A stretch of DNA of 33,101 nt. Source: Acidimicrobiia bacterium (GTDB taxonomy: Bacteria > Actinomycetota > Acidimicrobiia > Acidimicrobiales > JBBRKR01). Location of the stretch: assembly GCA_043782545.1 (NCBI GenBank), contig JAYWAI010000248.1, forward strand, positions 1 through 33,101. Reading direction: 5' to 3'. This document shows positions 1,287 through 32,975 of this stretch, piece after piece. The stretch's first letter is position 1; each line of letters opens with the position of its first letter. Below the pieces are notes generated by a model. It did not search any database. It saw nothing but the letters and a program-made list of their open reading frames with translations, and was not told the origin of the DNA. The translations under genes and the position numbers were made by a program.

Positions 1287-1300
1287 ACCCGCACAGTATC

Positions 1301-1314
1301 TGACACTTGTGTCA
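1301..1314. promoter_or_regulatory. Candidate operator, perfect palindrome TGACAC-TT-GTGTCA
   Basis: Perfect 6+6 inverted repeat in the 61-bp divergent spacer between the thiolase-like gene (start 1286, -) and the SDR gene (start 1348, +). One of nine copies in the window. Confidence 0.6.
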
Positions 1315-3164: not shown

Positions 3165-3174
3165 CGGCGTATTC

Positions 3175-3188
3175 TGACACACGTGTCA
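3175..3188. promoter_or_regulatory. Candidate operator, perfect palindrome TGACAC-AC-GTGTCA
   Basis: Perfect inverted repeat filling the 18-bp gap between the LLM (-) and kinase (+) genes. The right half-site GTGTCA equals codons 1-2 (GTG TCA) of the kinase ORF. TATTCT lies at 3170-3175. Confidence 0.6.
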
Positions 3189-5033: not shown

Positions 5034-7840
5034 TGCATGACCTCTTCGATCATTGATTCACCATGAGACTCGCCATGCGTCGTGCCCAAGTAGGCGTCGA
5101 TAACTCGCCGATTGCTCCGTATTTCTGCTGGCGTTCCTTGTGCGATGAGCTGACCAAAATCGAGCACCACGATGTAGTCGCAGAGGCCCAATACCAAATT
5201 GACATCATGGTCGACCATCAGGATGGTTGCTCCCATGTCACGAATATCTCGCAATCGTTCGCTGAGCCACTCGCTCTCCATCGAATCCAATCCAGCTGCC
5301 GGTTCGTCCAGAAGCAGCAAGTCGGGCTCAGCCACCAGTGCCCGACCAATTGAAACCAGTTGCCGTTGCCCCTGGGATAAATCGCCTGCCGGACGATCAC
5401 GAAGATCGCCGATACGCAGGGTTCCAATTGTGCGATCCAAGCTGGCTTTCGAGACGGCGCCAAAACCTTGGCGACCGCTGGCCAAACCAACCGTAAGGTT
5501 TTCTTCGACGGTGAGATCTTCGTACAGCTCGATGGCTTGAAAGGTTCTGGTCAGGCCGAGTTTGACCCGCTGATGCGGACGTTTGCCTTCGAGGTCAACG
5601 CCGTTGAGAGAAATACGTCCAGTCGAGTTGGCGAATCCGGTGAGGGCATCGATGGTGGTGGTCTTGCCTGCGCCATTGGGGCCGATGAGGCCAACAATGG
5701 CCCCCTGAGGTACGTCGAATGACACGTCGTTGACTGCCACTACGCCGCCGTAGGCAACACGTAGATTTTCGACGCGCAACAGGGTGGGCGCATCCGTGAG
5801 GTCGATTGTTTGACGCTGCGAAACGCTCGAAGTTGTGATGTCAGACGCCATGTCACCACCAGATCCTCGTAGTCGCTTTCTGGTTTTTTCGCGCACGTCT
5901 CTGACCATCAAATGGGCAGGGCCGGTGATGCCTTCTGGATTGGTAATCACTGTCACAATCAGCAAAACGGCAGTCACGATTTGGTACCACTTGCCGAGTG
6001 AAAACCATTTGTTGGTGGCGTAGTACACCACGGCGCTACCTCCGAGGAATCCAGCGGCAACACCGCCGGACACTGAGGTAATGCCGGCGAGGTAGGTCGT
6101 GCTAAAGAGTCCGAGTCCGACCAGCGGGAGGTATTGAGAATCAGACGCCGTGCCGTACCGGTACGCCAACACCGTGCCACCAATACCGGCGATAAATGAG
6201 GCAATGGCAAACGCGACCAGCTTCACCCGAAAGACGTCGACGCCCGCCGCAGCAGCGGAACGTTCGTTGGCCCGTACGGCCACCATGGCTGATCCAAGAT
6301 GGCTTCGGCGCAGAAAGGCGACTCCGGTACCGGCGAGGGTAAGCACCGTGAGAGCAAAAAGGCCGAATGCGATATGCGAGGCGTTTTTTGATTGTCCGTA
6401 GTCGAGATTGATGCCAAACAGTTTCGGCTTCGGGATGTCGACACCGCCCTTGAGACCCACAATGTCGGTGTTCTTGAACCAAACGTTTTCGATAGCCACG
6501 GCCAGACTTAGCGTGACCACGGCGACGCTCAGTCCTCGAACTCGCAATGCTGGTAACCCGACGACAACGCCAAGTGCCGTGGCAAACAGGGCCGCCAAAA
6601 TTGGAGCGACGGGGAATGGGATACCCCACTCCTTTGCTATGTAACTCAGCGAGTAGGCGGCAGTGCCCGCCAACGTGAGTTGAGCTAGTGAGATTTGGCC
6701 GGCATATCCCGAAACGACCACTAGTGACAATGAGAGCGTCCCGAATATCAAGCTGATGATGTAGGCCTGACGCCATTCGCCGTGTAAGGCGAGCAGTGCC
6801 AAAATTCCCAGGGCCACGCTGATGGCGGCAGTGGCGGGCACGTTGCGCGGTCGCGGCGCGCGGCCGAGCGATCGTTGCAACAATGCGCCACGTTCGGGCA
6901 ATGGTTTACCGCGCACGACGAGTACGAGTAACACGATGACGAGCGGCACAAGTTCCGGGCCCCCCACTTTGGGAAACCACGAAAACGTTTGCGGGAGAAA
7001 CAGTGTTTCTGATCCCAGCATGCCAATTGCCAGACCGCCGGCGGCGGCGAGGCCGAGGTGTTCGAATCGCCCTAGCACCGCGGCCGCCAGGGCGGGAATG
7101 ATGTAGAACGTGTAAGCCAACGGTGGTGGAGTTATCGAGCTCATCGAGGCGATCAAGATCCCCGCTAAGCCGGCCACGACCGATGACAACATCCAGTTGA
7201 TTGCCGCAACTCGTTGGGGCGAAATGCGGCTCACGGCCGCCCCTTTTTCCGTCTCGGCGGCGGCGCGGGTAGCTAGGCCGAACCGTGTGTATTTGAAACC
7301 TACGCCGAGCACTGCCGCCAGGATGATCACCGTGAGGGCAAACCACAATCGGTCAGTCGACACAACGGCGGCGCCGAGTTTGAACTTCGACGTGGGATAG
7401 ATCTTTTTTGACTTGGCGCCGCTGGCTCCAGCTTTGTTGACGGTGAGCGTGACGAGCAGAATTTGCACGCCGAGCGACGCCACGACTTTGGCCACGGGCG
7501 GCGCCGCTCTCAGCGGCCGGAAAACGGCCAAATACAACGTCAGGCCGAGCAGCGCTGACAGTGTGAGCGAGATAGCAAACCCGGTGTACACGTTAGGCAT
7601 AAACGGCAATTTGTACGTCTTGTCAAGGCCCGGCAATAGCGGCAGAAACTGTCCATCGCGCAAGTACGAGTAGACGTACGCGGCATACAGAGCGATTGAT
7701 CCAGTGGCGAAGTTGATGACACCGGAGCTGCGGTAGGTGACCACCAGAGCAATAGCCAACGCAGCAAACACTGCTCCGTTCCCCGTGCCAAGTAAGAGAT
7801 TGCCAAGATGACTCATTGTCGAAAAAATCCGTTCAGTCAA
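5030..7840 (-). CDS. Fused LivH-LivM-LivG polypeptide (two permease domains plus an ATPase domain)
   Basis: Uninterrupted 936-aa ORF. Residues ~10-330 are LivH-like (GVINFATGS..). Residues ~340-650 are LivM-like (LSLVVVSGYAGQISLAQ..). Residues ~680-936 are LivG-like (GLIGPNGAGKTT, LSQGQRQLV, LLLLDEPAAG). TTG at 7840 is the track start; the first ATG is at 7816. Confidence 0.85.
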   Translation of the reverse strand: MTERIFSTMSHLGNLLLGTGNGAVFAALAIALVVTYRSSGVINFATGSIALYAAYVYSYLRDGQFLPLLPGLDKTYKLPFMPNVYTGFAISLTLSALLGLTLYLAVFRPLRAAPPVAKVVASLGVQILLVTLTVNKAGASGAKSKKIYPTSKFKLGAAVVSTDRLWFALTVIILAAVLGVGFKYTRFGLATRAAAETEKGAAVSRISPQRVAAINWMLSSVVAGLAGILIASMSSITPPPLAYTFYIIPALAAAVLGRFEHLGLAAAGGLAIGMLGSETLFLPQTFSWFPKVGGPELVPLVIVLLVLVVRGKPLPERGALLQRSLGRAPRPRNVPATAAISVALGILALLALHGEWRQAYIISLIFGTLSLSLVVVSGYAGQISLAQLTLAGTAAYSLSYIAKEWGIPFPVAPILAALFATALGVVVGLPALRVRGLSVAVVTLSLAVAIENVWFKNTDIVGLKGGVDIPKPKLFGINLDYGQSKNASHIAFGLFALTVLTLAGTGVAFLRRSHLGSAMVAVRANERSAAAAGVDVFRVKLVAFAIASFIAGIGGTVLAYRYGTASDSQYLPLVGLGLFSTTYLAGITSVSGGVAAGFLGGSAVVYYATNKWFSLGKWYQIVTAVLLIVTVITNPEGITGPAHLMVRDVREKTRKRLRGSGGDMASDITTSSVSQRQTIDLTDAPTLLRVENLRVAYGGVVAVNDVSFDVPQGAIVGLIGPNGAGKTTTIDALTGFANSTGRISLNGVDLEGKRPHQRVKLGLTRTFQAIELYEDLTVEENLTVGLASGRQGFGAVSKASLDRTIGTLRIGDLRDRPAGDLSQGQRQLVSIGRALVAEPDLLLLDEPAAGLDSMESEWLSERLRDIRDMGATILMVDHDVNLVLGLCDYIVVLDFGQLIAQGTPAEIRSNRRVIDAYLGTTHGESHGESMIEEVMQ

Positions 7841-7930: not shown

Positions 7931-9232
7931 TCAGGAGCCGACTTTGAAGTTAGTAGCGGTGCCCTTGTCGTCGAGGACGGCAGTGGCATACGAGACTGTG
8001 CACACTGGTGGGAAAATGGCAATCGCCTTACCGTCACAGTTAAAGGTCGCTCCCTTGAGCGTGGGGTACGGGTACGGGCCGCCGGTCTTGATGGCTGCGG
8101 TGACTGCTTCCTTGGTGACATCGCCGGTGACTTTTGCCATGATCTCGTTGAATGCGGTGATCACTGCGAAGGACCCGACTGGCGTACCTGCAGGGTTGAC
8201 CTTGGAGTCGTACTTTGCCACAATTCCCTTGAAGAGCACGATGTCAGCGTTAGCTGGGTCTTCGCCGGCTGCGTAGCTCACGATGATGTCTTTCAATTGT
8301 GCGCCAAGCGACGATACAACCGTTTTGTCCAGGCAGTTTGAAATCATCGTGATGGTGCCCTTAAACGATGCGTCGCGCAAACCCTTGATGGCGGTGGAAC
8401 AGAATGACGGATTGCCAATGATGTGGACGAGCTGGGCGCCTTTAGCAATGATTGCCTGGGCATCGGGGCCCATGTCACTGGCGGCGGCGTCGATACCGAC
8501 GATGTTGAGGTCGGTGATGCCAAGCGGGGTGAAGGCCAAAGGTGCCAACGCCTTTGCCGCGCCGATGGCGGCAGGCACGTTGGTTGACATGATGGCCGCC
8601 GATTTGACGCCCTTTTCTTTCGCAATGGAGGCGGGGAATGCTCCGAGGCCAGCAAGCCCGTTGGACATACTAAAGGCGGCCTGCCCGAGCATTGAGACGT
8701 CTGCTGCGGCGAAAGCCAGGGTAGGAATGCCGGCACCGGAGACGGTTTTGATCCATGGGGCAACCTGACCGTTGACATTCATAAGTACGATCGGCACGCC
8801 GTCGGAGACCATCTTGGCACCACAATCAGCGGCGATCGCTGGATCTTCGTTAGTGCCACAGACATCGAGTTCCAGCTTGTGACCGCCGAAGCCGCCCTTA
8901 TATTCGTTGTAGTACTTCACGACAGCTTGCGCAGCGTTGAGTTCCTCAGTGGCATCAATGCCCGCCGAGACGCCTGAGTAGATGTAGCCGACCTTGAGAG
9001 CTGTACCGGTGGCCGCGGTTGGTGTGCCAAGCACGTCGGGGACGGTAGTGGTGGCACCAGTAGTTGTCGTTGTGTCACCAGCCACAGTGGTCGTAGCTCC
9101 GGTGGTGGTTGCTCCGGTGGTGGTTGTGGCGGTGGTCTTCGAACTGCTGCAAGAAGCGGCAATTATCGAAATCGCCCCAACTGCTGCCACTCGTCGAACA
9201 AATGTCATGGACGTTTTCACGCGTTTCCCCAT
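7931..9232 (-). CDS. ABC transporter substrate-binding lipoprotein (LivK / type I periplasmic-binding fold)
   Basis: 433 aa. Signal peptide with lipobox ..RRVAAVGAISIIAAS|C, then the Thr/Gly-rich linker TTATTTTGATTTGATTTVAGDTTTTTGATTT, then an SBP body. Possible starts are 9232 (ATG), 9220 (GTG, with GGGGAA upstream) or 9208 (ATG). Confidence 0.85.
   Translation of the reverse strand: MGKRVKTSMTFVRRVAAVGAISIIAASCSSSKTTATTTTGATTTGATTTVAGDTTTTTGATTTVPDVLGTPTAATGTALKVGYIYSGVSAGIDATEELNAAQAVVKYYNEYKGGFGGHKLELDVCGTNEDPAIAADCGAKMVSDGVPIVLMNVNGQVAPWIKTVSGAGIPTLAFAAADVSMLGQAAFSMSNGLAGLGAFPASIAKEKGVKSAAIMSTNVPAAIGAAKALAPLAFTPLGITDLNIVGIDAAASDMGPDAQAIIAKGAQLVHIIGNPSFCSTAIKGLRDASFKGTITMISNCLDKTVVSSLGAQLKDIIVSYAAGEDPANADIVLFKGIVAKYDSKVNPAGTPVGSFAVITAFNEIMAKVTGDVTKEAVTAAIKTGGPYPYPTLKGATFNCDGKAIAIFPPVCTVSYATAVLDDKGTATNFKVGS
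9096..9125 (-). repeat. 15-bp tandem duplication (gctccggtggtggtt x2) within the Thr-rich linker coding region
   Basis: Exact copies at 9096-9110 and 9111-9125, embedded in a longer ggt/ggc-rich low-complexity tract (~9040-9140). Confidence 0.8.
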
Positions 9233-9286
9233 TCATTGTTGGCCCGACGCCCCCCTTGGGGTCGGGACGTCGCTCGTTGCCGAATC

Positions 9287-9300
9287 TGACGCGAGTGTCA
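9287..9300. promoter_or_regulatory. Candidate operator TGACGC-GA-GTGTCA (1 mismatch)
   Basis: Lies in the 191-bp divergent spacer between the SBP operon (-) and the P450 operon (+). The left flank TC extends the symmetry. Confidence 0.5.
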
Positions 9301-12534: not shown

Positions 12535-13065
12535 GTGACTTCTTCGCCGCCGCTGCGCCGTCCAGACAAACCCCAAATGCTGAATCATGTGGCGTACATC
12601 ACCCACGATACGTCGGCCACGGTCGCCTTCTATACCGAGATGCTCGGCATGGAATTGGTAGCGGCCGTGATGGACGACAAGATCCCCTCCACGGGCGATC
12701 CGGTGCCGTATTTTCACTCCTTCTTCAAGATGGCTGATGGCTCGACCGTTGCGTTTTTCGAAGCGCCGTCGCTGCCGCCAGCCTGCGCCGTGACACATCC
12801 GGCTTACAACATTTTTCAGCACATAGCGCTGCAAGTCGCCACTCGGGACACGGTCGACGAGTGGCGCGAATGGTTGGTGGGCAACGGCATCGATGTGATC
12901 GGTCCCGTGAATCACGGCATCATTTACAGCATCTATTTCTACGACCCCAACGGCATCCGCTTGGAACTCACCACCGCATTAGATCCAACTTGGAACAGCC
13001 AACCCGAAGCGGCGCGTGCCTCCCTGGCCGAGTGGGAACTATCCAAGGCGACCAACCGTGGATGA
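12535..13065 (+). CDS. VOC-family protein (glyoxalase / extradiol-dioxygenase fold)
   Basis: 176 aa. LNHVAYITHDTSATVAFYTEMLGMELV and QHIALQV..IYFYDPNGIRLEL are typical VOC beta-alpha-beta-beta-beta modules. Confidence 0.8.
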   Translation: MTSSPPLRRPDKPQMLNHVAYITHDTSATVAFYTEMLGMELVAAVMDDKIPSTGDPVPYFHSFFKMADGSTVAFFEAPSLPPACAVTHPAYNIFQHIALQVATRDTVDEWREWLVGNGIDVIGPVNHGIIYSIYFYDPNGIRLELTTALDPTWNSQPEAARASLAEWELSKATNRG

Positions 13066-17578: not shown

Positions 17579-18410
17579 ATCGCAACCAATTCTCGGAGTA
17601 TTGCTGGGCTTGAGCGGCTTTCATTCCCGCGATGCCATCGGAGTCGATGATGCTGCGAAATGTGCGGCCATCGGGGGCCGTAGCGAGAGCCGCTAGTCCA
17701 AGAGTGTGAGCATCGGCTTTCATGGCGGCACCCCTGAGTGAGGTTGCGCCGCCCGCGTCGGCGGCAGCGTCGATGGCTCGACGATTGGCGAGCACAGATT
17801 GCGACGGCATACGCGTAAGTCGACGCGCCAGATCAAACGCTCTGGCACCGAGTTCCCCGTCGGGTTCGACGCTGAATACGAGGCCGAGTTCGTGGGCTTG
17901 GGCCGCCGAAATGAGTTCGCCAGTGGTCATCAAAAACTTCGCCCATTGCCGACCCACGACGTCGACCAGCGTCGTCGCGCCGACCAAACCAAGTCGGGCT
18001 TCCGGGAACCCGAAAAGTGTTGATTCTGCGGCGAGCACAAAGTCACACGACATGGCTAGCAACAGGCCTGCACCCAAGCAGTGACCGTGCACAGCGGCAA
18101 TGATGGGCTTGGTGCTCGACCGCACCCGTGCGTGAAACGCATCAGCGGTTTCTAAAAACGCCAGATCGTCTTCGTACGTTTCACGCCGTGAGTTACCAGT
18201 GAGGTCCCCTCCACAGCAGAACGATTTCCCCGCCCCGTTGAGGATGATGCACCTGAGGTTGTCGTCGCTCTCAGCGATTACGAGCGCCTCGATGATTTGA
18301 TCGCGAGTACCGCCAGAACGCCCCGAAATCGCGTTGCGCATCTCGGGTCGATTCAGGGTAACCGTGGCGATGCCATCGCTGGTGGCGTATGCGATTTCGT
18401 CAAGTGACAC
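17562..18410 (-). CDS. Enoyl-CoA hydratase/isomerase (crotonase) family protein
   Basis: Contains GIATVTLNRPEMRNA, GAGKSFCCGGDL, AAVHGHCLGAGL and FGFPEARLGL. I prefer GTG 18410, which has TAATCT 7 nt upstream (leaderless). The track start at 18614 would overlap the divergent ligase gene by 160 nt (more against the ligase track ORF). Confidence 0.8.
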   Translation of the reverse strand: MSLDEIAYATSDGIATVTLNRPEMRNAISGRSGGTRDQIIEALVIAESDDNLRCIILNGAGKSFCCGGDLTGNSRRETYEDDLAFLETADAFHARVRSSTKPIIAAVHGHCLGAGLLLAMSCDFVLAAESTLFGFPEARLGLVGATTLVDVVGRQWAKFLMTTGELISAAQAHELGLVFSVEPDGELGARAFDLARRLTRMPSQSVLANRRAIDAAADAGGATSLRGAAMKADAHTLGLAALATAPDGRTFRSIIDSDGIAGMKAAQAQQYSENWLRSTTSW

Positions 18411-18418
18411 GACTGTTA
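18405..18418. promoter_or_regulatory. Degenerate operator copy TGACAC-GA-CTGTTA (2 mismatches)
   Basis: Lies at the crotonase (-) / ligase (+) divergent junction. The left half-site on the minus strand (GTGTCA) equals codons 1-2 of the crotonase gene. A 21-nt stretch is 19/21 identical to the copy at 12506. Confidence 0.35.
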
Positions 18419-18453
18419 GATTAGGCCGCGACGCCCGCCCTAACATGCACACC

Positions 18454-23144: not shown

Positions 23145-23888
23145 ATGTCCGTACAATCTCAAGTAACTGACGGCGTGTTGATCATCACGCTCGATCGCCC
23201 AGAAGCGGGAAACTCGCTGAATCCCGAGGTCGGGAGCGGCATCGTGGGCGCTATGACACAGGCCGAAGCGGATCCCGATATTCGCGTGATTGTGGTGACC
23301 GGTGCCGGTGAGAAAATCTTCTGCGCCGGCATGGATCTCAAGGCATTCGCCGCCGGCGAGGACATGGCGCCGGTTGGCAAAGCTCTCAACATGTTGAGAG
23401 CAAGCAAGAAGCCAATCATTGCGGCCGTAAATGGCGCTGCAGTGGCTGGCGGCTTCGAAGTCGTGATGACGTGCGACCTCGTGGTGGCCGTCGAACATGC
23501 CAAATTCGGCATTCCGGAAGTGAAACGCGGTTTAGTGGCCGCTGGTGGCGGCACACGCTTGCCCACTCGTATCCCATTACAAGTGGCCCTGGAAATGGGG
23601 CTCACCGGCGATCCGATTTCGGCCGCTCGGGCGCTCGGATTAGGACTCATTAATCGTGTGGTGCCGGCCGCTGATTTGATGGCCGCCGCGCTCGAGTTGG
23701 CGGGGCGAATCACCGCTAACGGTCCGCTTGCCGTGCAGGCAACCAAACAGCTGATGCTTGAAGAGATGGGCGCTGATATTTCGGCCCACGTGCTCGAGGT
23801 GACACGACATGTATTCGCCAGTCACGATGCCATCGAGGGCGCCACGGCGTTCGCCCAAAAGCGCCCACCGGTGTGGACGGGTAGCTAA
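23145..23888 (+). CDS. Enoyl-CoA hydratase (crotonase)
   Basis: 247 aa from ATG 23145 (GAAAGG RBS). Contains VLIITLDRPEAGNSL, GAGEKIFCAGMDLK, AAVNGAAVAGGFE and FGIPEVKRGL. Confidence 0.9.
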   Translation: MSVQSQVTDGVLIITLDRPEAGNSLNPEVGSGIVGAMTQAEADPDIRVIVVTGAGEKIFCAGMDLKAFAAGEDMAPVGKALNMLRASKKPIIAAVNGAAVAGGFEVVMTCDLVVAVEHAKFGIPEVKRGLVAAGGGTRLPTRIPLQVALEMGLTGDPISAARALGLGLINRVVPAADLMAAALELAGRITANGPLAVQATKQLMLEEMGADISAHVLEVTRHVFASHDAIEGATAFAQKRPPVWTGS

Positions 23889-25018
23889 CGCGTCAGCAAC
23901 ATCGCGCCGGAGAATGGCCCCACCGCGTTGGCCCACACGGCCACCTCGGCGTTGTCGACCTGTCGATCGCCACACTGCCCCCGCAATTGGCGCGTTGCTT
24001 CGATGCAAAAATTGGCGCCATGACGACGCCCCACATTGATCGCTCCACCGTCGGTGTTCGTCGGCATCGCACCTCCTAAACGCGTATTGCCTTCGGCAAT
24101 AAACGGCCCGGCCTGCCCCGGCGGACACAGGCCGAGTGCTTCGAGCCATTGAAACGTGATGATCGAAAACCCGTCGTACAGATGAGCACAATCAACGTCG
24201 GCTGGTTTCAGATCAGTACGCGACCACAACACCTCGGCACAGTGCGCGGGGGATGTGTGCACCATGTCGGGCAAGATCTCAAAATTCATGTCATGAATCG
24301 CCGAGAGTGCCGATGCCTCGATAAACACTTCTGGTTGTTTGAGATCTCGTGCCCGCTCCTCAGTCGTGAAAATCACCGCGGAGCCAGAGTCGCACGGGTA
24401 GTCACAATCCAGTATCCGTAATGGTTTTGTGATGTATGGCTGCGCCAAGAAGTCGGCTTTGCTCAGCGGTCCGCGCATGAGCGCATTGTCGTTCAAGCGG
24501 GCGTACTCACGCTGCACCTCGGCGAACGCAGCAAAGTGCTCTTCGGTCGCATCAGATTCGTGCATGTAGCGATTCATGAGCAATCCAGCCCATTGGGTCG
24601 GGCTGAAATCGCCGAACGGATATTGGAATTGTGTATCGCCGGGGCTCGGTGAGCCGAGCATCGCGCCACCAGCAGCCAAAGCAGCGCTTGAAGGTTGTTG
24701 CATCATCAAACGAAACGACATGCACACTTCGCTATGGCCCGTGGCCACTGCTTGCGCGGCGTGATACGCCGGTGTGATGAACGCGGGGGACGTACCCACG
24801 TTGAGATTCCACTGGAGTTTGTTGAAGCCCAACATCCAGGCAAAGTCGGTGGCGTCACCACCCCAGGTGCTCACTCCGTCGATGTCGCTGGCCTTGAGAC
24901 CGGCGTCGTCGAGAGCGGCGACGGCCGCTTGGGCGGCGTGCATGCGTTCACTCATACCCGAATTTCGGGCCACTTGGGAATAGCCAACGCCGACGATAGC
25001 AACACGACGATTTTTCAC
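23885..25018 (-). CDS. Thiolase-superfamily protein, SCP-x/Ltp type
   Basis: 377 aa. Contains MKNRRVAIVGVGYSQVAR and NTDGGAINVGRRHG. GTGA overlap with the upstream DUF35 gene. No Cys is visible at the expected nucleophile position. Confidence 0.85.
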   Translation of the reverse strand: MKNRRVAIVGVGYSQVARNSGMSERMHAAQAAVAALDDAGLKASDIDGVSTWGGDATDFAWMLGFNKLQWNLNVGTSPAFITPAYHAAQAVATGHSEVCMSFRLMMQQPSSAALAAGGAMLGSPSPGDTQFQYPFGDFSPTQWAGLLMNRYMHESDATEEHFAAFAEVQREYARLNDNALMRGPLSKADFLAQPYITKPLRILDCDYPCDSGSAVIFTTEERARDLKQPEVFIEASALSAIHDMNFEILPDMVHTSPAHCAEVLWSRTDLKPADVDCAHLYDGFSIITFQWLEALGLCPPGQAGPFIAEGNTRLGGAMPTNTDGGAINVGRRHGANFCIEATRQLRGQCGDRQVDNAEVAVWANAVGPFSGAMLLTR

Positions 25019-25437
25019 TTCGACACCGGCCGAAAAACAGGAATCGTGATTTCATCTGAGAGCATTTCGAAGTCGACTTCGAGCGCCATGCCAATGCGGG
25101 CATCTGACTCAGAAACGCCAACCAAGTTGGACAAGAAGTGCAATTGCGGTTGTTCAATTAGTGCGACGGTGGCCAACAAGTACGGCACCCGGTCGACGAA
25201 GTAAGGGTGAAACGCTTTGTGCGTTTCGGTAAATGAATACAGCGTTGCCCGTCCGGAAACTTGCTCGAAGGCCAGGTCGAAACCTTGGCAATTGCGGCAA
25301 ACGGGTCGCGGCAGATGGATATACGTGCCGCATGCCTGGCAACGCAAAATGCGAAGCTGGCGTTGCCGGGTACCTTCCCAAAATGGCTCGGTGAACGGCT
25401 CGATAACTATTGGCGGAGGAGCGACATTTTGACTCAT
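25015..25437 (-). CDS. DUF35 OB-fold / Zn-ribbon protein (thiolase partner)
   Basis: 140 aa. Contains FWEGTRQRQLRILRCQACGTYIHLPRPVCRNC (Cys4 ribbon) followed by an OB-fold tail. The ATG overlaps the TetR stop codon (ATGA). Confidence 0.85.
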   Translation of the reverse strand: MSQNVAPPPIVIEPFTEPFWEGTRQRQLRILRCQACGTYIHLPRPVCRNCQGFDLAFEQVSGRATLYSFTETHKAFHPYFVDRVPYLLATVALIEQPQLHFLSNLVGVSESDARIGMALEVDFEMLSDEITIPVFRPVSK

Positions 25438-26786
25438 GTGGCGACAATGACCCTTTCAATGAACGTTGCTTGCATTTCGATAATCGCCGGGACGGTGGGC
25501 TCATATTTGCTGCCGCGCCCTTCGTTCGGTACATGCTCAAGTAGCGCGGAGAGCATCAAGCCCGCTGCCCGGCGATCCAGTGCGTAGGCCCGGCTTTGGC
25601 CGAAGAGTGAGCGCACTGCGGCGCCGATCCCAATCACGGTATCTCGGCACGCAGAGAGGGTTTGCGGGTCGTTGGGATAGCCCTCCGTCCACGAACGCAA
25701 CACCCCGGCATATCGTTCTTGCAATACGATGAAACCGTTGAGCCACGCGCGGAGGGCCGCTGGGTCGTTGGTAGAGGCAGCGACGCCGAGCTGTTGGAAT
25801 GGCGGCGTCATGGCGAGGGCACAATCGTGGGCGAGGTATCGCAACAGGTCGAGTTTGTCAGTGAAATAGCGGTAGTAGGTACCTCGTGCCACACCGGCCT
25901 TTTTCACAATGGCGTCGATGCTGGCGCCATCGAATCCGGAGTCGGCAAATACCGCACTACCGGCGTCGAGCAGATTTCGCATTGTTTGATGGGCCTGGTC
26001 ACTCAGGTCGAATCGGCCAGTCAGAGGCTCGATGTCTGTTCGAGCCGCCAAGTGCGCCAGTGGTCCCATGGCGTCGGGGCTTGGTGATGGGGCCACTCGA
26101 TGCTGACGACCCAGGGCTGACTGCGGCCCGGCTCGCAAGAACTCGTGAGGCGTATCGGGGAAAAGAAAAAGCTGCAAGGCAGTAGCGATGTTGTCGACGA
26201 GTTGCGTGTTGGTGAGGCCGGGTCGATAGACATGGTTGATGTAGTGGTACCGATTGAGGAGACCTAGCACGACGATCGCCGCGGTGTGTTGATCGCGAAC
26301 GGGGTAGCCAGCGGCAGCGAGGGATTCGCCAAACTGCTCGGCGTGTCTGTCGACGTAGCTGGTAACCCGTGGGCGCAGCGGAGCCTTGGGGGACGCCACG
26401 TTGGCCCACTCGACGAACAAGGTGGCATACCGTTCAAACACCCAATTCCACTCGCCGAGCCACCAATGCAAATTGTCGAAGCCTTCGGGTGTCGGACCGA
26501 TTGCACCGAGGCGACGGGTGACCCGCATTAGCGCATCGCCGGCCTCATCCATGAGCTCGATGAAGATCGCTTGTTTGCTCTCGAAATATTGATACAGCGT
26601 GGCGCGCGAAACATCGGCTGCCGTGGCGATGTCATCGACAGACGTGGTGTGAAAACCGATCTTGGCAAAGCAGCCCAAAGCCGATTCGACGATCTGTTGT
26701 CGGGTCTGGGCACCTCGTTCGCCGATGGTAGGACTCGTAGGTCCGTAGCTGTTTCGCCGTTCGAATGCGTCGGATTTTGCCTTCAA
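25434..26786 (-). CDS. Tandem-duplicated (double) TetR-family transcriptional regulator
   Basis: About 450 aa with two complete TetR modules. HTH 1 is QQIVESALGCFAKIGFHTTSVDDIATAADVSRATLYQYFESK. HTH 2 is RNLLDAGSAVFADSGFDGASIDAIVKKAGVARGTYYRYFTDK. My preferred start is TTG 26786, with GGAGGG 3 nt upstream. The 598-aa track ORF runs antisense through the neighbouring DUF35 gene. Confidence 0.8.
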   Translation of the reverse strand: MKAKSDAFERRNSYGPTSPTIGERGAQTRQQIVESALGCFAKIGFHTTSVDDIATAADVSRATLYQYFESKQAIFIELMDEAGDALMRVTRRLGAIGPTPEGFDNLHWWLGEWNWVFERYATLFVEWANVASPKAPLRPRVTSYVDRHAEQFGESLAAAGYPVRDQHTAAIVVLGLLNRYHYINHVYRPGLTNTQLVDNIATALQLFLFPDTPHEFLRAGPQSALGRQHRVAPSPSPDAMGPLAHLAARTDIEPLTGRFDLSDQAHQTMRNLLDAGSAVFADSGFDGASIDAIVKKAGVARGTYYRYFTDKLDLLRYLAHDCALAMTPPFQQLGVAASTNDPAALRAWLNGFIVLQERYAGVLRSWTEGYPNDPQTLSACRDTVIGIGAAVRSLFGQSRAYALDRRAAGLMLSALLEHVPNEGRGSKYEPTVPAIIEMQATFIERVIVAT

Positions 26787-26815
26787 CGACCCTCCGATCC
26801 TCTCGATTGCGCGTG

Positions 26816-26829
26816 TGACGTTAGTGTCA
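26816..26829. promoter_or_regulatory. Candidate operator TGACGT-TA-GTGTCA (2 mismatches, right half perfect)
   Basis: Lies in the 78-bp divergent spacer between the double-TetR operon (-) and the DUF35-thiolase operon (+). The right flank GA extends the symmetry. Confidence 0.4.
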
Positions 26830-26864
26830 GAATAGACCACTGCTCCACGATCAGGGAAGGCAAC

Positions 26865-27290
26865 ATGCCGTTTCAACCATTGCCCACGATTACTGATGAC
26901 ACCGCGCCGTTTTGGGAAGGTGGTGCCGTCGGCGAATTGCGCATCAACCGATGCCGATCCTGCCGCACCTGGTTTCACCCGCCGGCGCCGGTATGCCCTG
27001 AATGTCTGACTATGGACGTGGGCCCAGAAGTGGCCAGCGGTCGTGCCACAGTGGCAGCCTTCACCGTCAATATGCAGCAATGGTCGCTCGACATGGTGGT
27101 GCCCTTCGTGTTGGCCATCGTGGACCTCGACGATCAACCAGGTGTCCGGTTGATGACGCGCATGGTCGACTGCGCTGCTGACGACATGCATGTTGGGTTG
27201 CCGGTCGAGGTCACATTTCAGGCGGCCCAAGACATGTGGTTGCCGTTGTTTCGGCCCTGCTCGGGCAATGACTCGGCGGTGTCGGTATGA
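26865..27290 (+). CDS. DUF35 OB-fold / Zn-ribbon protein (thiolase partner)
   Basis: 141 aa from ATG 26865 (AGGGAAGG RBS). Contains FWEGGAVGELRINRCRSCRTWFHPPAPVCPEC followed by an OB-fold tail. Confidence 0.85.
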   Translation: MPFQPLPTITDDTAPFWEGGAVGELRINRCRSCRTWFHPPAPVCPECLTMDVGPEVASGRATVAAFTVNMQQWSLDMVVPFVLAIVDLDDQPGVRLMTRMVDCAADDMHVGLPVEVTFQAAQDMWLPLFRPCSGNDSAVSV

Positions 27291-28474
27291 CCCCCAGAAT
27301 TGGCGAACGCGACACCCTCATTTCGGGAATTGGGCAGTCGGCGATCGGCCGAAAGTTGGGTCGCACGGGTCTGTCGCTCACGGTGGAAGCGTGTTTGGCG
27401 GCGATAGCCGACGCTGGCTTATCGCGCGACGATATCGACGGCGTGTCGAGCTACCCCGGAGCCATGGACGCCTCGCCTGGCATGTCGCCAACGGGCGTGC
27501 ATGAGCTCAAAGACGCGCTTCGATTGCCGGTGAATTGGTTCTGCGGTGGCGCCGAAACGCCGGGGCAGTTGGGCGCGGTATTTAACGCCATTGCCGCGGT
27601 GTCGGCCGGGCTGGCGAACCATGTGTTGGTATTTCGCACGGTTACCGAATCCAGCGCTCAGACCGCCAGCCGCCGTGCCAGTGTGGTGGGCGGTGGCGGC
27701 CGAGTGGGTGGTGTCATGCAATGGATGGTGCCGTTTCACGCGGTGAGCGCGTCGAACTGGGTGGGGATGTACACCCAGCGCTACATGCACGACTACGGCC
27801 TGACCCGAGAGCAACTCGCCCAAATTCCGCTCAACGCCCGCCGGCACGCGGCGCTCAATCCGAACGCCATTTTCCGGGACCCGCTCACTCTTGATGACTA
27901 CATGAACGCCCGCATGATTTCGTGGCCGTTGTGCCTCTTCGACTGTGACATTCCGTGTGACGGCTCGTCGGCTCTGATCATCTCGCGTTCTGATGCTCGT
28001 GCTGACCTGCGCAAAGTCGTTGATATTGAGGCGATTGGTTCGGCCCTCCATGGTCGAGACTCGTGGGACCAGCGCGCCGATCTCACCGAAATGGCCAGTC
28101 ACGACGCCGCTGGCATGATGTGGTCACGTACCGACCTCAAACCCGCTGATGTCGATTCGGCGCATCTCTATGACGGGTTTTCTTACCTCAATTTGCAGTG
28201 GCTCGAAGCTTTGAATTTCTTTCGCAAGGGCGAGGCCGGCGGGTTTCTGGAGGGCGGCGAAAGTCGGATTGGGCTCGGCGGCGAGTTGCCGATGAACACC
28301 AACGGCGGCCAGCTTTCTGGGGGCCGTTTGCACGGGTATGGCTACCTGCACGAGGCATGTGTGCAGCTGCGCGGCGAGGCAACCGGCCGTCAGGTCGCAA
28401 ACGCGCAAGTGTCGGTAGTGGCCGCCGGTGGAGGTCCACTCGGCGGTTGTTTGCTGCTGACGAGCGGGCGCTAG
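27287..28474 (+). CDS. Thiolase-superfamily protein, SCP-x/Ltp type
   Basis: 395 aa. ATGA overlap with the DUF35 gene. Contains NTNGGQLSGGRLHG. A Cys is present in NWFCGGAETPG, but it is not in the usual register. Confidence 0.85.
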   Translation: MTPRIGERDTLISGIGQSAIGRKLGRTGLSLTVEACLAAIADAGLSRDDIDGVSSYPGAMDASPGMSPTGVHELKDALRLPVNWFCGGAETPGQLGAVFNAIAAVSAGLANHVLVFRTVTESSAQTASRRASVVGGGGRVGGVMQWMVPFHAVSASNWVGMYTQRYMHDYGLTREQLAQIPLNARRHAALNPNAIFRDPLTLDDYMNARMISWPLCLFDCDIPCDGSSALIISRSDARADLRKVVDIEAIGSALHGRDSWDQRADLTEMASHDAAGMMWSRTDLKPADVDSAHLYDGFSYLNLQWLEALNFFRKGEAGGFLEGGESRIGLGGELPMNTNGGQLSGGRLHGYGYLHEACVQLRGEATGRQVANAQVSVVAAGGGPLGGCLLLTSGR

Positions 28475-28512: not shown

Positions 28513-29708
28513 CCGGCTTCTCGCACGGCAGTGATTTCGTCCCAATCGAATCCGGCATCCATCAGGATCGCTTCGGTGTCCTGACCCAGCTCCGGCGCGG
28601 GGCCTGCAGGAGTGGTGTGTACCCCGTCGAATTGCATGGGCGCCGCCACTAAGCGGAATTCGAGGCCGTCGTTTCCAGTCACCAAGGGTAGAAAACCATT
28701 GGGGGCCATTTGTACATGATCATGAACTTCCTTCACGTCAATGACCGGTGCCCAAACTCCGCTGAAACCATCGAACCGTTTTTTCCATTCCTCCAACGTG
28801 GCACTGCCAAAAATGTCGTCCATGACTCGAACGCATTCGGCACGGTTGACATATCGCGCTTGTGCGTTGTCGAATCGCGGGTCGGCAATGAGATCGGGGC
28901 GTTGCATGACGCCGCACAATTCACCCCAGAAACGGTCGGCCTGCAGGAGCACTAAATACAGCCAGCGTTCGTCGGACGTTTTGTACCAATTGGTCAGCGG
29001 GTTACCCGGCTCCTCCCGTGAGGTCGTCATGCTCTGCGCCAAATAGGGGGCGCTCACGATGTCGCACGCCATCGACCACATGCCGACGTTGAGAAGCGAC
29101 ACGTCCACGATCGATGGTTCGCCGGTGTTGGCCCGCTTGAACAACGCCATGGCGATCGCTCCCGCAATGGTGTTGCCACCTTGGAGGTCATAGAACGCCG
29201 GTGGTTGCGGGGGAGGGGTCTTGGTCGGTGATTGGTTGGCGAGCCGATTGGCAAACCCCGAGGAGGCCCATGCCGCGGCCAAGTCGTAGCCGCCCACATT
29301 TTTCATAGGGCCTTGGCTGCCCCAACCGCTCCCGCACACAAAGATGATGTTGGGATTGGCCTGTCGGATCACGTCAATGTCGATATTCAGTTTCTGGCGA
29401 GTCTCGGGCAGGTAGCTCGTGAGGAAAACGTCGCTCACCGCGGCGATCTTCAAGAGTGTCTCGCGCCCCGCTGGAATGCTCAGATTCAGTGTGATGCTGC
29501 GCTTGCCCCGGTTGGGAATTTCGTTAAACGGGTTCGGGCCCGCACTCTCGAAATTCAACATGTTCTTCAAGCCACGCTGAGGGTCGCCCGTTGGGGGCTC
29601 TACTTTAATGACATCAGCGCCGAGGTCGGCCAAGATGGCCCCTGCCGCGGGCACAAACGTCCAGGCGGCAACTTCGAGAACACGTACACCTGCAAGTGGT
29701 TTGGTCAT
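28500..29708 (-). CDS. Family III CoA-transferase (CaiB/BaiF; same fold as alpha-methylacyl-CoA racemase)
   Basis: MTKPLAGVRVLEVAAWTFVPAAGAILADLGADVIKVEPPTGDPQRG is the hallmark N-terminus. I prefer ATG 29708 over 29723, which lies inside the palindrome. Confidence 0.9.
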   Translation of the reverse strand: MTKPLAGVRVLEVAAWTFVPAAGAILADLGADVIKVEPPTGDPQRGLKNMLNFESAGPNPFNEIPNRGKRSITLNLSIPAGRETLLKIAAVSDVFLTSYLPETRQKLNIDIDVIRQANPNIIFVCGSGWGSQGPMKNVGGYDLAAAWASSGFANRLANQSPTKTPPPQPPAFYDLQGGNTIAGAIAMALFKRANTGEPSIVDVSLLNVGMWSMACDIVSAPYLAQSMTTSREEPGNPLTNWYKTSDERWLYLVLLQADRFWGELCGVMQRPDLIADPRFDNAQARYVNRAECVRVMDDIFGSATLEEWKKRFDGFSGVWAPVIDVKEVHDHVQMAPNGFLPLVTGNDGLEFRLVAAPMQFDGVHTTPAGPAPELGQDTEAILMDAGFDWDEITAVREAGALG

Positions 29709-29717
29709 ATGCAATTC

Positions 29718-29731
29718 TGACATATGTGTCA
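29718..29731. promoter_or_regulatory. Candidate operator TGACAT-AT-GTGTCA (1 mismatch)
   Basis: Lies in the divergent spacer between the CoA-transferase (-) and the isochorismatase-like pair (+). The left flank TC extends the symmetry. Confidence 0.5.
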
Positions 29732-29776
29732 GCTATGGTGGCGATTCGACCGGGAGGGACATTTGCCGTGGAGAAA

Positions 29777-30409
29777 ATGCCGAAAACCATTCGAGGACTC
29801 GAGGCGGGCAAACGTCCGGCGCTGGTGATTAGCGAGTGCCAGCGCGGCATTTTGGACCCTGCGCTCACCACGATTGGCGGCCTCGCTGCGCAAGCTGCGG
29901 AGCGAAACATGTTCGTGCATATTGCGCGCCTGGCTGACGCGTTTCGGGGCGCGAATCTACCGGTTGTTCATGCGCATATTGGGTTCCTGCCGGGCTACGC
30001 GGGTGCGGCATTGACGAGCCCCATGATGGGCATGTCGCGCCGCAACAACAAGCTGATGTTGGGCTCGCCCGATGCCGAACCAATGCCGGGTGTCGAACCG
30101 CAGCCCGGCGATTTCGTGTCGCTTCGCCACTCTGGCCTGGTGATGTGGGAAGGCACCCACATCGATTCGACTTTGCGAAATTGCGGCGTCGATACGATCG
30201 TGTTTACCGGCGTGTCCACCAACTTGGCGTTGTTTGGCGGCACGCTCGGTGCAGTGGAGCGGGGGTATTACGCGGTGATCCCCGAGGATGCCACCTCAGG
30301 CGCATCAGCAGAATCGCATCAATGGATGCTGCAAAATTCGTTAAATTTGTTGGCCTGGATCTCGTCCGTCGACGCCGTCATCGATGCCATTTCGCGGTTG
30401 TCAACATGA
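29777..30409 (+). CDS. Isochorismatase-family (cysteine-hydrolase fold) protein
   Basis: 210 aa from ATG 29777 (GGAG 4 nt upstream). Contains PALVISECQRGI and IVFTGVSTNLALFGG. ATG 29735 is an alternative start. Confidence 0.7.
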   Translation: MPKTIRGLEAGKRPALVISECQRGILDPALTTIGGLAAQAAERNMFVHIARLADAFRGANLPVVHAHIGFLPGYAGAALTSPMMGMSRRNNKLMLGSPDAEPMPGVEPQPGDFVSLRHSGLVMWEGTHIDSTLRNCGVDTIVFTGVSTNLALFGGTLGAVERGYYAVIPEDATSGASAESHQWMLQNSLNLLAWISSVDAVIDAISRLST

Positions 30410-31059
30410 GTACGCCAAGCGATCGGTTTCGCCAAATCGTTGATCCGTCGCACACCGCCGTGGTAACCATGGAGCTGCAACGGGGCATCGTGGGCGACCA
30501 GGCCGTGTTGCCGGCATTGCCCGTAGCGGTGCGTGAAGCGGGCATGCTCGAGATCGCGGGACGTGTGTGCCGGGCGGCGCGAATTGTGGGTGCTCGTGTT
30601 GTGCACGCCACCATGGAAGAGCGAGCCGACGGCCTCGGCCAGGCGGTCAACTGCAAGATATTTTCGATTGTGGCCAAGCGCAGGGCCGAGGTCGGGTTTT
30701 CACCCACCGAAATTGGTCAACCAGGGGCCGAACTCGTGGAAGAACTCGACGTGCAGCCAGCCGACGTGAAGGTGGCGCGTATGCACGGCATGACTCCGTT
30801 TACTGGTACGGAACTCGACGCCGTCATTCGCAACATGCGTGTCACCACAATCGTGCTCATGGGCGTCTCGCTCAATCTGGGCATTATCGGAGCGGCACTC
30901 AGTGCGCTTGATTTGGGATACCAGGTAGTGGTTGTTCGTGACGCCGTCGTGGGTTTGCCCAAGGCATATGCGGACGCGGTGCTCGAAAATTCGATCGCCA
31001 TGATTGCTACGGTTGTGACCGCCGATGAGTTGATCGCCGCATGGGGCGAGTCTTTGTAG
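30406..31059 (+). CDS. Isochorismatase-family protein (paralog of the preceding gene)
   Basis: 217 aa from ATG 30406 (ATGA overlap). Contains TAVVTMELQRGI and IVLMGVSLNLGIIGA. Confidence 0.75.
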   Translation: MSTPSDRFRQIVDPSHTAVVTMELQRGIVGDQAVLPALPVAVREAGMLEIAGRVCRAARIVGARVVHATMEERADGLGQAVNCKIFSIVAKRRAEVGFSPTEIGQPGAELVEELDVQPADVKVARMHGMTPFTGTELDAVIRNMRVTTIVLMGVSLNLGIIGAALSALDLGYQVVVVRDAVVGLPKAYADAVLENSIAMIATVVTADELIAAWGESL

Positions 31060-32361: not shown

Positions 32362-32751
32362 TTAGAGCAGCAGCTTGGCGGCGCGTGGATGAGCGGCGGC
32401 CATTGCTTTGTCGAAGGTCAAGACTTTGCCCGAAAAATGCCCAGCGAGAGAGATGAGATAGGCATCGGTGACCTGCCGGTGGCCAGTGATGTTTTCCAGA
32501 CCGACTTGCTCGAATCCGATAGCGTCGGGCCAAAATTCGTGTCGACGCGAATCTGTGATTGATGCCAGTGCCGCGAGTGCCTCCTCGTGCCGCACGCCGA
32601 CTCGCAGGCAGTACCTCAGGAGCGATCCTTGCGTGATCGGGCAGGTGGCGAATGGCGTGTCTTTCGCCCACCAGGTCAACATCTTGTGATGGTGTTCGTG
32701 GTCGACAATTGCGAGCGCAATCAACGCGTTTGAATCGAGCAGGGTCACCAT
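32362..32751 (-). CDS. vapC: Type II toxin VapC (PIN-domain ribonuclease)
   Basis: 129 aa. MVTLLDSNALIAL carries the PIN Asp in LLDSN, and TDAYL carries a later acidic residue. It overlaps the upstream antitoxin gene by 7 nt. Confidence 0.85.
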   Translation of the reverse strand: MVTLLDSNALIALAIVDHEHHHKMLTWWAKDTPFATCPITQGSLLRYCLRVGVRHEEALAALASITDSRRHEFWPDAIGFEQVGLENITGHRQVTDAYLISLAGHFSGKVLTFDKAMAAAHPRAAKLLL

Positions 32752-32975
32752 TCGTCCTCCATTGCTGCGACGTCGGCGGAGGTGACCGGACGACCCACGC
32801 GGATTGGCTTGAGGCCTCGTGGGCCGGTGGTAACGACCGGTCGTTGCGGTCCGTTCGCGAGTAGTGATTCCTTCAGGAGATCCGAAGCCAATTGGCTCAT
32901 GGTGGAGTGAAGGTCAATTGCTCGTTTGCGTAGTTCGCGATGTATCTCGGGCGGCAAGTCGATGGTCGTTCGCAT
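32745..32975 (-). CDS. vapB: Type II antitoxin VapB
   Basis: 76 aa. MRTTIDLPPEIHRELRKRAIDLHSTMSQLA is a typical VapB/RHH-like N-terminus. TACCAT lies 6 nt upstream of the ATG. Confidence 0.8.
   Translation of the reverse strand: MRTTIDLPPEIHRELRKRAIDLHSTMSQLASDLLKESLLANGPQRPVVTTGPRGLKPIRVGRPVTSADVAAMEDEW

Follow-up and report, generated by a model that had tools for sequence, protein, structure and literature searches.

A candidate tandem TetR repressor and its putative palindromic operators in a catabolic gene island of an Acidimicrobiia bacterium

Which protein reads the palindrome TGACAC-N2-GTGTCA that recurs through a catabolic gene island of an Acidimicrobiia bacterium (contig JAYWAI010000248.1)? 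The whole stretch of DNA that was analysed, 33,101 nucleotides long and hereafter called the window, encodes a regulator with two TetR modules in one polypeptide (minus strand, 25434..26786), and a first-pass annotation had named this protein as the candidate binder of the sites. It had also pointed out that a pseudo-dimer with two different helix-turn-helix (HTH) motifs might be expected to prefer asymmetric sites. In the present study, comparative genomics supported the first of these views, and the sites proved to be asymmetric outside a 14-bp core, because an (A)(W)TC extension flanks each window site on one side only. The reading that we favour, at a probability of about 0.72 and from sequence comparison, is that the tandem TetR is the binder and repressor of the palindromic sites.

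The palindromic sites and their distribution

When TGACAC-N2-GTGTCA was searched in the window with at most two mismatches, 11 copies were found against 1.69 expected, and none of 100 shuffles reached 11; four copies are perfect palindromes. A 22-nt matrix was trained on nine oriented window sites alone and scored them at 24-31 bits, while shuffles gave 0.2 matches each at 14 bits or more. The palindrome matches at 4231 and 20963 (2 mismatches) and the core-only match at 31810 lie below 14 bits and lack the extension, and were treated as chance. The nine putative operators, with their matrix scores, are the following.

1297..1314, plus strand: TATC-TGACAC-TT-GTGTCA, between a thiolase-like gene (minus) and a short-chain dehydrogenase/reductase (SDR) gene (plus); 27.0 bits
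3171..3188, plus strand: ATTC-TGACAC-AC-GTGTCA, between a luciferase-like monooxygenase gene (minus) and an APH-family gene (plus); 28.0 bits
9283..9300, plus strand: AATC-TGACGC-GA-GTGTCA, between an ABC substrate-binding protein gene (minus) and a P450 gene (plus); 27.4 bits
12506..12523, minus strand: AATC-TGACAC-TC-GTGTCA, 5' of the glyoxalase/VOC gene 12577-13065 (plus); 30.9 bits
18405..18422, minus strand: AATC-TAACAG-TC-GTGTCA, between an enoyl-CoA hydratase (ECH) gene (minus) and an ADP-forming CoA ligase gene (plus); 25.7 bits
22295..22312, minus strand: CTTC-TGACGC-TA-GTGTCA, between an SDR gene (minus) and an ECH gene (plus); 24.7 bits
26816..26833, minus strand: ATTC-TGACAC-TA-ACGTCA, in the 90-bp divergent gap between the regulator and a DUF35/thiolase-like pair; 24.7 bits
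29714..29731, plus strand: ATTC-TGACAT-AT-GTGTCA, at the start of a CaiB-type CoA-transferase gene (minus), adjoining isochorismatase-family genes (plus); 24.2 bits
31519..31536, minus strand: GATC-TGACAC-AT-GTGTCA, between a SnoaL-like gene (minus) and an SDR gene (plus); 26.0 bits

The copy that had been noticed at the regulator junction was found in its place: its core (26816-26829, 2 mismatches) lies 30 nt 5' of the regulator start and 48 nt 5' of the divergent DUF35 start, and the site is a putative autoregulatory operator, common to the divergent DUF35/thiolase-like promoter. Scans of the junction (26700-26950) for a sigma-70 promoter, a terminator and inverted repeats gave nothing. The site at 18405..18422 has the TAACA form, as mycobacterial sites do. 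For the site at 29714..29731, an orthologous one is found 5' of the CaiB gene in relatives. The operator at 3171-3188 overlaps the mechanical GTG starts of both divergent open reading frames (ORFs), at 3182 (minus) and 3183 (plus); the true starts are probably further inside, because Pfam domains are matched only from residues 25 and 38 onwards. Likewise, the start of the CaiB gene at 29723 is probably too early, with an alternative Met6 at 29708.

The sites were then compared with those at 80 loci of relatives, 79 from one-genome-per-species contigs and one found by exact look-up; all were chosen for carrying the regulator. The close Acidimicrobiia orthologues have a site that reads GTC-TGACAC-NN-NCGTCA-GAA no further than about 270 bp 5' of the regulator start, at 36-101 bp in most loci, and the window site, read on the regulator strand as TTC-TGACAC-TA-ACGTCA, has the same inner form. 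By the non-redundant tally, a site was found no more than 300 bp upstream of the orthologous regulator gene in 11/16 Acidimicrobiia loci. In Frankia and Parafrankia, the orthologues carry a related inverted repeat, CTCTGACAT-NG-ATGTCCGAG, across the start codon. At 64 more distant loci, the window-trained matrix gave 86 matches at 16 bits or more against 0.83 in shuffles, and 36/64 loci had a match of at least 19 bits (0.03 expected). These loci, at 37-45% protein identity, include Mycobacterium, Mycolicibacterium, Nocardia, Gordonia, Williamsia, Streptomyces, Amycolatopsis and Actinoallomurus. Matches of the type TGTCCGA/TGTCAGA at distant orthologue starts were rejected as operators, being coding sequence (ATG-TCC-GAA, Met-Ser-Glu).

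A particular arrangement was seen at mycobacterial loci (L034, L035, L037, L039-L042, L045, L046, L050, L058, L059, L061, L064, L066 and L069). Two one-sided sites, ATTC-TGGCAC-TC-ATGTCA-CT and ATC-TAACAT-TA-GTGTCA-CT, stand 88-90 bp apart and 4.8-6.5 kb upstream of the regulator (for example at L066 5133 and 5221), and most of these loci have a third site 2-5 kb downstream of it. At L066, the only locus of this type with annotated genes, the pair lies between a P450 gene and a divergent Gfo/Idh/MocA gene; alcohol dehydrogenase, aldehyde dehydrogenase, ECH and CaiB genes belong to the same cluster. The pairing is reminiscent of Mce3R, whose two sites are 53 bp apart and for which looping has been suggested (PMC11667970). 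By sequence, the motif is found to travel with the tandem TetR family across two classes of Actinomycetota; this is co-localisation and not proof.

The flanks of the sites provide a second line of evidence. When the nine window sites are oriented by flank, all read (A)(A/T)TC-TGACAC-NN-GTGTCA, with T at -2 and C at -1 invariant and A or T at -3 in 9/9 on the extended side. The mirrored flank is unconserved, the mirror-image base at -1 being present in 1/9 sites. TC occurs on exactly one flank in 9/9 sites, and the chance of at least one TC flank in all nine is 6e-9. The concern that a pseudo-dimer might be expected to prefer asymmetric sites is therefore largely answered, since the extension is one-sided at all nine and the symmetry is confined to the 14-bp core. 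A tally of non-redundant sites from the window and the 16 close loci gave the following counts, which are not independent because many of the sites are orthologous.

Target sites (n=25): no extended flank, 6; one extended flank, 19; two extended flanks, 0
Sites upstream of the regulator gene (n=11): no extended flank, 0; one extended flank, 4; two extended flanks, 7

The seven non-autoregulatory window sites in this tally come from seven different promoter regions and are all one-sided. At distant loci, the sites listed are essentially all one-sided too, with the forms ATTC-TGGCAy-NN-rTGTCA-CT and ATC-TAACAT-NN-GTGTCA-CT; their GTGTCAC half is strict and the extended half is looser (T-R-R-C-A). 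The one-sided flank is the pattern expected from a covalently asymmetric pseudo-dimer and not from a symmetric homodimer. A TC/GA extension on two flanks is typical 5' of the regulator's own gene (7/11; L001-L012, L036 and L080; for example L011 9894 and L080 9854), while the window's own 26816 site is one-sided. The two-flank form might reflect tighter binding, an ability to bind in either orientation, or a common origin of these sites.

The best surviving alternative, which we regard as unlikely, is that a conventional homodimeric regulator, with its gene outside the window, uses the palindromes as operators, and that the tandem TetR binds other, non-palindromic DNA as Mce3R does, or regulates only its own operon. 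A 14-bp core that is a perfect palindrome at four sites is typical of homodimers, and several further points weigh against our reading. For Mce3R, the structurally characterised tandem TetR, the bound site is non-palindromic and 25-27 bp long (PMC11667970). The two half-sites of the core do not differ, yet the equivalent of R53, which is essential in Mce3R, is Q66 in the first module and R306 in the second. Most mycobacterial orthologues have no site directly upstream; their sites are about 4-7 kb upstream or 2-5 kb downstream. All of the evidence that joins regulator and sites is co-localisation at loci picked for carrying the regulator, and the CaiB, DUF35-thiolase and P450 genes travel with it, so that an unlinked regulator of these targets would give a similar pattern. 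In addition, locus L080 has a second, ordinary TetR gene of 202 aa about 7 kb from the tandem TetR gene. Against the outside homodimer, the motif accompanies the gene of the tandem TetR all the way from Acidimicrobiia to Mycobacterium, Nocardia and Streptomyces, and a site stands directly 5' of that gene in most of the close loci. Strict one-sided flanks, in the window as in the target sites of the tally, are not predicted by a homodimer, and the 33-kb window has no other regulator apart from a toxin-antitoxin pair. The claim that the tandem TetR is the only regulator in the window nearly held: Pfam scans of the window ORFs gave no other regulator domain, with the exception of a VapC gene and its antitoxin-like ORF (32362-32975).

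Architecture and family of the regulator

The regulator that we favour as the binder is encoded by the following elements.

25434..26786, minus strand: coding sequence of the tandem TetR, 450 aa, with TTG start at 26784-26786 and TGA stop at 25434-25436 (ORF listing and sequence)
26790..26795, minus strand: Shine-Dalgarno sequence GGAGGG, 3 nt 5' of the TTG start (read from the sequence)
26721..26786, minus strand: N-terminal arm, residues 1-22, with the motif RRxSYGPxSPxVGxRG, predicted to be disordered
26553..26693, minus strand: HTH 1 (TetR_N, residues 32-78), recognition helix SRATLYQYF, invariant across the family
26001..26144, minus strand: inter-module linker, residues ~215-262, partly disordered, with conserved GPLAxLP and LS motifs
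25854..25994, minus strand: HTH 2 (second TetR_N, residues ~265-311), recognition helix ARGTYYRYF, R at position 306

The mechanical ORF extends to 27230 (598 aa), into the divergent DUF35 gene, and one database gene call of the window's regulator (P0001, 468 aa) starts at GTG 26840. Both starts were dropped in favour of TTG 26786, because the homologue N-termini align at the TTG and GGAGGG precedes it, and because with the longer forms the operator or the divergent gene would fall inside the coding sequence.

That one ORF holds two full TetR modules, as had been claimed, was confirmed. Pfam TetR_N (PF00440) matches in two separate stretches (E 2e-29, 101.4 bits against a cut-off of 24), the first at residues 32-78 and the second at about 263-315, as placed by NCBIfam and PDB alignments. 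Aligned with each other over 101 aa, the halves share 30% identity (E 2e-11), and 114 PDB TetR chains match one half or the other at E<=1e-3. The recognition helices quoted in the first-pass annotation as similar and not identical, VSRATLYQYFESK and VARGTYYRYFTDK, both occur in the protein. None of the 25 NCBIfam families listed reaches its cut-off for the regulator; the KstR model NF033703 gives 51.4 bits against an equivalog cut-off of 280.

A search of 5.8 billion proteins gave 187 homologues at E<=1e-10, of which 120 were listed. Among the matches listed, nearly all are 430-470 aa long, with query coverage of 93-100% and identity of 40-58%; those with names are from Actinomycetota, the closest being metagenome-assembled genomes (MAGs) of Acidimicrobiia and those further out Streptomyces, Frankia, Pseudonocardia, Amycolatopsis and Cryptosporangium. 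An exhaustive phmmer search over 1.84 billion cluster representatives (50% identity clusters) found 99 clusters at E<=1e-30 and 486 at E<=1e-10, mostly full-length. When 31 members were aligned, the two HTHs proved almost invariant (TSRATLYQYFESKE and ARGTFYRYFDDKL), and the N-terminal segment RRxSYGPxSPxVGxRGAxTR and the linker motifs are conserved. Within the arm, R10, R11, Y14, S18 and G22 hardly vary; R24 and G25, the residues shortly past it, do not vary at all. Position 306 is R in Acidimicrobiia and K in the distant clades (Mycobacterium, Frankia and Streptomyces).

Some family members are fused to other domains: P0058 (684 aa) to a TIGR00027-type methyltransferase (PF04072) and P0118 (604 aa) to MaoC/acyl dehydratase domains (PF13452, PF01575), while P0169 (670 aa) is extended at its N-terminus by about 245 aa. 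Fusion of a regulator to a hydratase would suggest an enoyl- or hydroxyacyl-CoA as the ligand.

The fold was predicted with AlphaFold2 on the 31-member alignment. The model has 22 helices, a mean predicted local distance difference test (pLDDT) score of 84.9 and a predicted template modelling (pTM) score of 0.83. Its helices span residues 23-208 (module M1) and 263-447 (module M2), and residues 1-20, 228-231 and 234-238 have pLDDT below 50 and appear disordered. Each module resembles solved TetR proteins over about 185-200 residues (template modelling score, TM, 0.6-0.8 by Foldseek). The only full-length Foldseek match in the PDB is 9b7y_A, which is Mce3R, over 439 aligned columns, with 17% identity and a TM of 0.58 when normalised to the query or 0.67 when normalised to Mce3R; all other matches cover one module (about 190 residues). 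The modules are thus predicted to pair within one chain as an omega-shaped pseudo-dimer, and the structure prediction that had been proposed as a check on this arrangement came out in its favour.

A different assembly, which we consider improbable, is a domain-swapped dimer of two chains in which M1 pairs with M1' and M2 with M2', one like-pair reading the core and the other being free for a second site, which would allow DNA looping. The palindromic core would suit two identical HTHs, the paired mycobacterial sites would fit looping, and the authors of the Mce3R study weighed an M1M1/M2M2 assembly and found that isolated M1 oligomerises (PMC11667970). However, AlphaFold packs the two modules together in a model that matches the intramolecular Mce3R fold over its full length, Mce3R M1 alone does not bind DNA (PMC11667970), and the one-sided flank argues against two identical readers. 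Finally, the concern that a frameshift or misassembly had joined two adjacent TetR genes, for which the unusual length and nothing more speaks, is ruled out, because full-length homologues are abundant (more than 180, in independent genomes and metagenomes) and the HTHs, the N-terminal segment and the linker motifs are conserved.

Proposed mechanism and the surrounding gene island

In the mechanism that we propose for the tandem TetR, M1 (about residues 23-210) and M2 (about 263-447), with nine helices each, would pack within one chain, so that a single omega-shaped pseudo-dimer with two non-identical HTHs replaces two TetR subunits. One protomer would occupy each 18-bp operator, 5'-(A)(W)TC-TGACAC-NN-GTGTCA-3', using both HTHs, as one Mce3R chain does on its operator (PMC11667970), and the similar recognition helices SRATLYQYF and ARGTYYRYF would read two TGACA-type half-sites. 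One module would add contacts to the 4-bp one-sided extension and so fix the orientation of the protein on DNA. The disordered Arg-rich N-terminal arm or the inter-module linker may take part in these contacts; in TetR proteins, arms of this kind bind the minor grooves on the flanks (PMC3241653). The hints on which module sits at the extended half-site conflict: by analogy with SimR and Mce3R, the position of the arm ahead of HTH 1 suggests M1, while HTH 1 is invariant like the strict half and HTH 2 varies like the looser half, which suggests M2.

Binding at the nine operators, which lie in promoter regions, mostly divergent ones, would repress locally a catabolic island of about 30 kb whose theme is the breakdown of fats and CoA esters. 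The predicted regulon comprises DUF35/thiolase-like pairs, enoyl-CoA hydratases, acyl-CoA dehydrogenases, SDRs and the CaiB-type CoA-transferase, together with the P450, the luciferase-like monooxygenase, the VOC enzyme and the Liv-type ABC transporter. Through site 26816 the regulator would also repress its own operon, including, in the window genome, the DUF35-thiolase pair joined to it by ATGA. Derepression would follow when a hydrophobic pathway intermediate enters the cavity between the modules; an acyl-CoA is probably the most likely ligand, by analogy with KstR2, Fad35R and Mce3R (PMC11667970).

Tentatively, and with somewhat less than even confidence, we suggest that the subfamily may read a directional operator, in which a palindromic core derived from a homodimeric ancestor is combined with a one-sided extension usable only by an asymmetric pseudo-dimer. 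If this is true, one-sided target promoters would fix the orientation of the protein, and the two-sided form at the regulator's promoter would permit either orientation or tighter binding. The family would then be a natural series showing how the symmetry of an operator can decay once a dimer has been fused into a single chain, and Mycolicibacterium, Nocardia and Streptomyces offer cultured members in which to study it.

The genes next to the regulator are as follows.

25015..25437, minus strand: DUF35/ChsH2-type gene (zinc ribbon and OB fold), its ATG overlapping the regulator TGA
23885..25018, minus strand: thiolase-like (SCP-x type) gene, overlapping the stop codon of the DUF35 gene
26877..28474, plus strand: divergent DUF35 gene (26877-27290) and thiolase-like gene (27287-28474), the conserved neighbour of the regulator in relatives

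Orthologues of the divergent pair, at 57-83% identity, adjoin the regulator in many related loci. The translational coupling to the downstream pair that the first-pass annotation had described was found as an overlap, the regulator TGA sharing ATGA with the ATG of the DUF35 gene when the sequence is read, but by comparison with relatives it is specific to the window genome and not conserved. At L002, L003, L010, L011 and L036, the downstream-pair orthologue (55-81% identity) lies on the same strand, past a gap or an intervening ECH gene, and the downstream pair has its own operator at L002 6727, L010 6796, L011 12209 and L080 12132. In the window genome, the downstream DUF35-thiolase pair seems to have been drawn into the regulator's operon, and would therefore be controlled through site 26816. 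Locus L010 (CAMAYS010000001.1), labelled 'MAG: Bifidobacterium breve' and of 52% guanine plus cytosine, has Acidimicrobiia-type synteny (CaiB, divergent DUF35-thiolase pair, tandem TetR, downstream DUF35-thiolase pair), and its label looks wrong.

Pfam scans of its ORFs show the window to be a catabolic island. Of its three thiolase-like genes, two are paired with DUF35 genes; enoyl-CoA hydratases number four, acyl-CoA dehydrogenases two and SDRs six. A CaiB-type CoA-transferase, an ADP-forming CoA ligase, a P450, a luciferase-like monooxygenase, an amidohydrolase_2 and a VOC protein are also encoded, as are a SnoaL-like protein, two isochorismatase-family genes, an APH-family kinase and a Liv-type ABC transporter. 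The same scans gave no Mce or YrbE domains, the Liv-type ABC system being the only transporter.

Several of these genes deserve comment. The 936-aa ORF at 5030-7840 (minus) has the branched-chain amino-acid permease domain BPD_transp_2 twice, an ABC ATPase domain and a BCA_ABC_TP_C tail, and thus resembles a LivH/M-LivG fusion. It is adjoined by a separate ATPase of LivF type (4293-5033) and by the substrate-binding protein (7931-9232), and the whole transporter sits behind the operator at 9283-9300. The two consecutive isochorismatase-family genes (29696-31059, plus) have mechanical ORFs that overlap by 265 nt (30145-30409), so that the second gene probably starts near 30420-30455. The VapC (PIN) gene at 32362-32751 (minus; Pfam PIN E 1.8e-9) belongs to a toxin-antitoxin pair that spans 32362-32975, at the 3' end of the window. 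A 76-aa ORF at 32745-32975 (minus; 'MRTTIDLPPEIHRELRKRAIDL...') overlaps the VapC start and has no Pfam match; since it occupies the position of a VapB-type antitoxin, it is the only other likely DNA-binding protein in the window.

Comparison with known regulators

The literature, searched for the motif and for further tandem TetRs that have been characterised, gave only Mce3R-related or irrelevant papers; Mce3R is the only one known to have been studied. More than 200 actinomycete proteins had already been noted to have the tandem-TetR architecture (PMC3711444), with Mce3R as the prototype; since this architecture was known, the advance made here is incremental and not conceptual. What is added is a second large tandem-TetR subfamily, from Acidimicrobiia to Mycobacterium and Streptomyces, with a predicted operator and regulon. 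It may serve as a tractable system for how a single-chain pseudo-dimer reads DNA and in which orientation, and the motif lets annotators assign regulons of CoA-ester catabolic islands in uncultured Actinomycetota. The one-sided extension of the operator is the most interesting testable lead.

Mce3R (Rv1963c) of M. tuberculosis, whose structure bound to DNA was solved by cryo-electron microscopy (PDB 9b7y), is the closest known system (PMC11667970). One chain forms an asymmetric TetR-like omega fold with two different HTHs about 32 Å apart and one ligand cavity; it binds one site, two chains dimerise through helix alpha15, and residues R9-R15 contact DNA (PMC11667970). The regulator described here shares with it two TetR modules and two non-identical HTHs per chain, an Arg-rich N-terminal segment beside HTH 1 and an actinobacterial lipid-metabolism context. 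Mce3R is also its best PDB sequence match (E 5e-12, 48.7 bits), with the DNA-binding domains in the same order; M1 resembles M1 of Mce3R more than its M2 (scores 116 and 54), and M2 fits neither Mce3R module clearly better (71 and 69). The precedent drawn by the first-pass annotation therefore holds for the architecture but not for orthology. The sequence alignment is confined to the two DNA-binding domains, Mce3R R53 corresponds to Q66, and the window has no mce genes. Mce3R has 406 aa, whereas the regulator here has 450 aa and a longer conserved arm (RRxSYGPxSP). Its predicted operator, a 14-bp palindromic core with a 4-bp one-sided extension, also differs from the non-palindromic Mce3R site. 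By sequence the protein is not an Mce3R orthologue and belongs to a separate subfamily, in which the searches showed no characterised member, because the identity to Mce3R is only 17%.

KstR, KstR2 and Fad35R, of mycobacterial steroid and fatty-acid catabolism, are likewise local repressors of beta-oxidation-type clusters, with short palindromic operators repeated across many divergent promoters, and KstR chains are among the PDB sequence matches of the regulator. They differ in having one module per chain and in being true homodimers. Their operator consensus differs from the palindrome found here (KstR, TnnAACnnGTTnnA). Acyl-CoA ligands have been described for two of them, HIP-CoA for KstR2 and palmitoyl-CoA for Fad35R (PMC11667970).

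SimR, too, has a disordered Arg-rich N-terminal extension ahead of its HTH, which contacts DNA beyond the major-groove site and enlarges the footprint (PMC3241653). By analogy, a SimR-like arm is a possible explanation for the extra flank bases. SimR is a homodimer in which both flanks are contacted, whereas the regulator here has one free N-terminus, which would naturally give a one-sided extension. Lastly, engineered single-chain TetR, in which two TetR subunits are joined by a linker (PMC3711444), resembles the tandem TetR as a covalent pseudo-dimer with one operator per chain, and differs from it in being artificial, with identical halves and a symmetric tetO.

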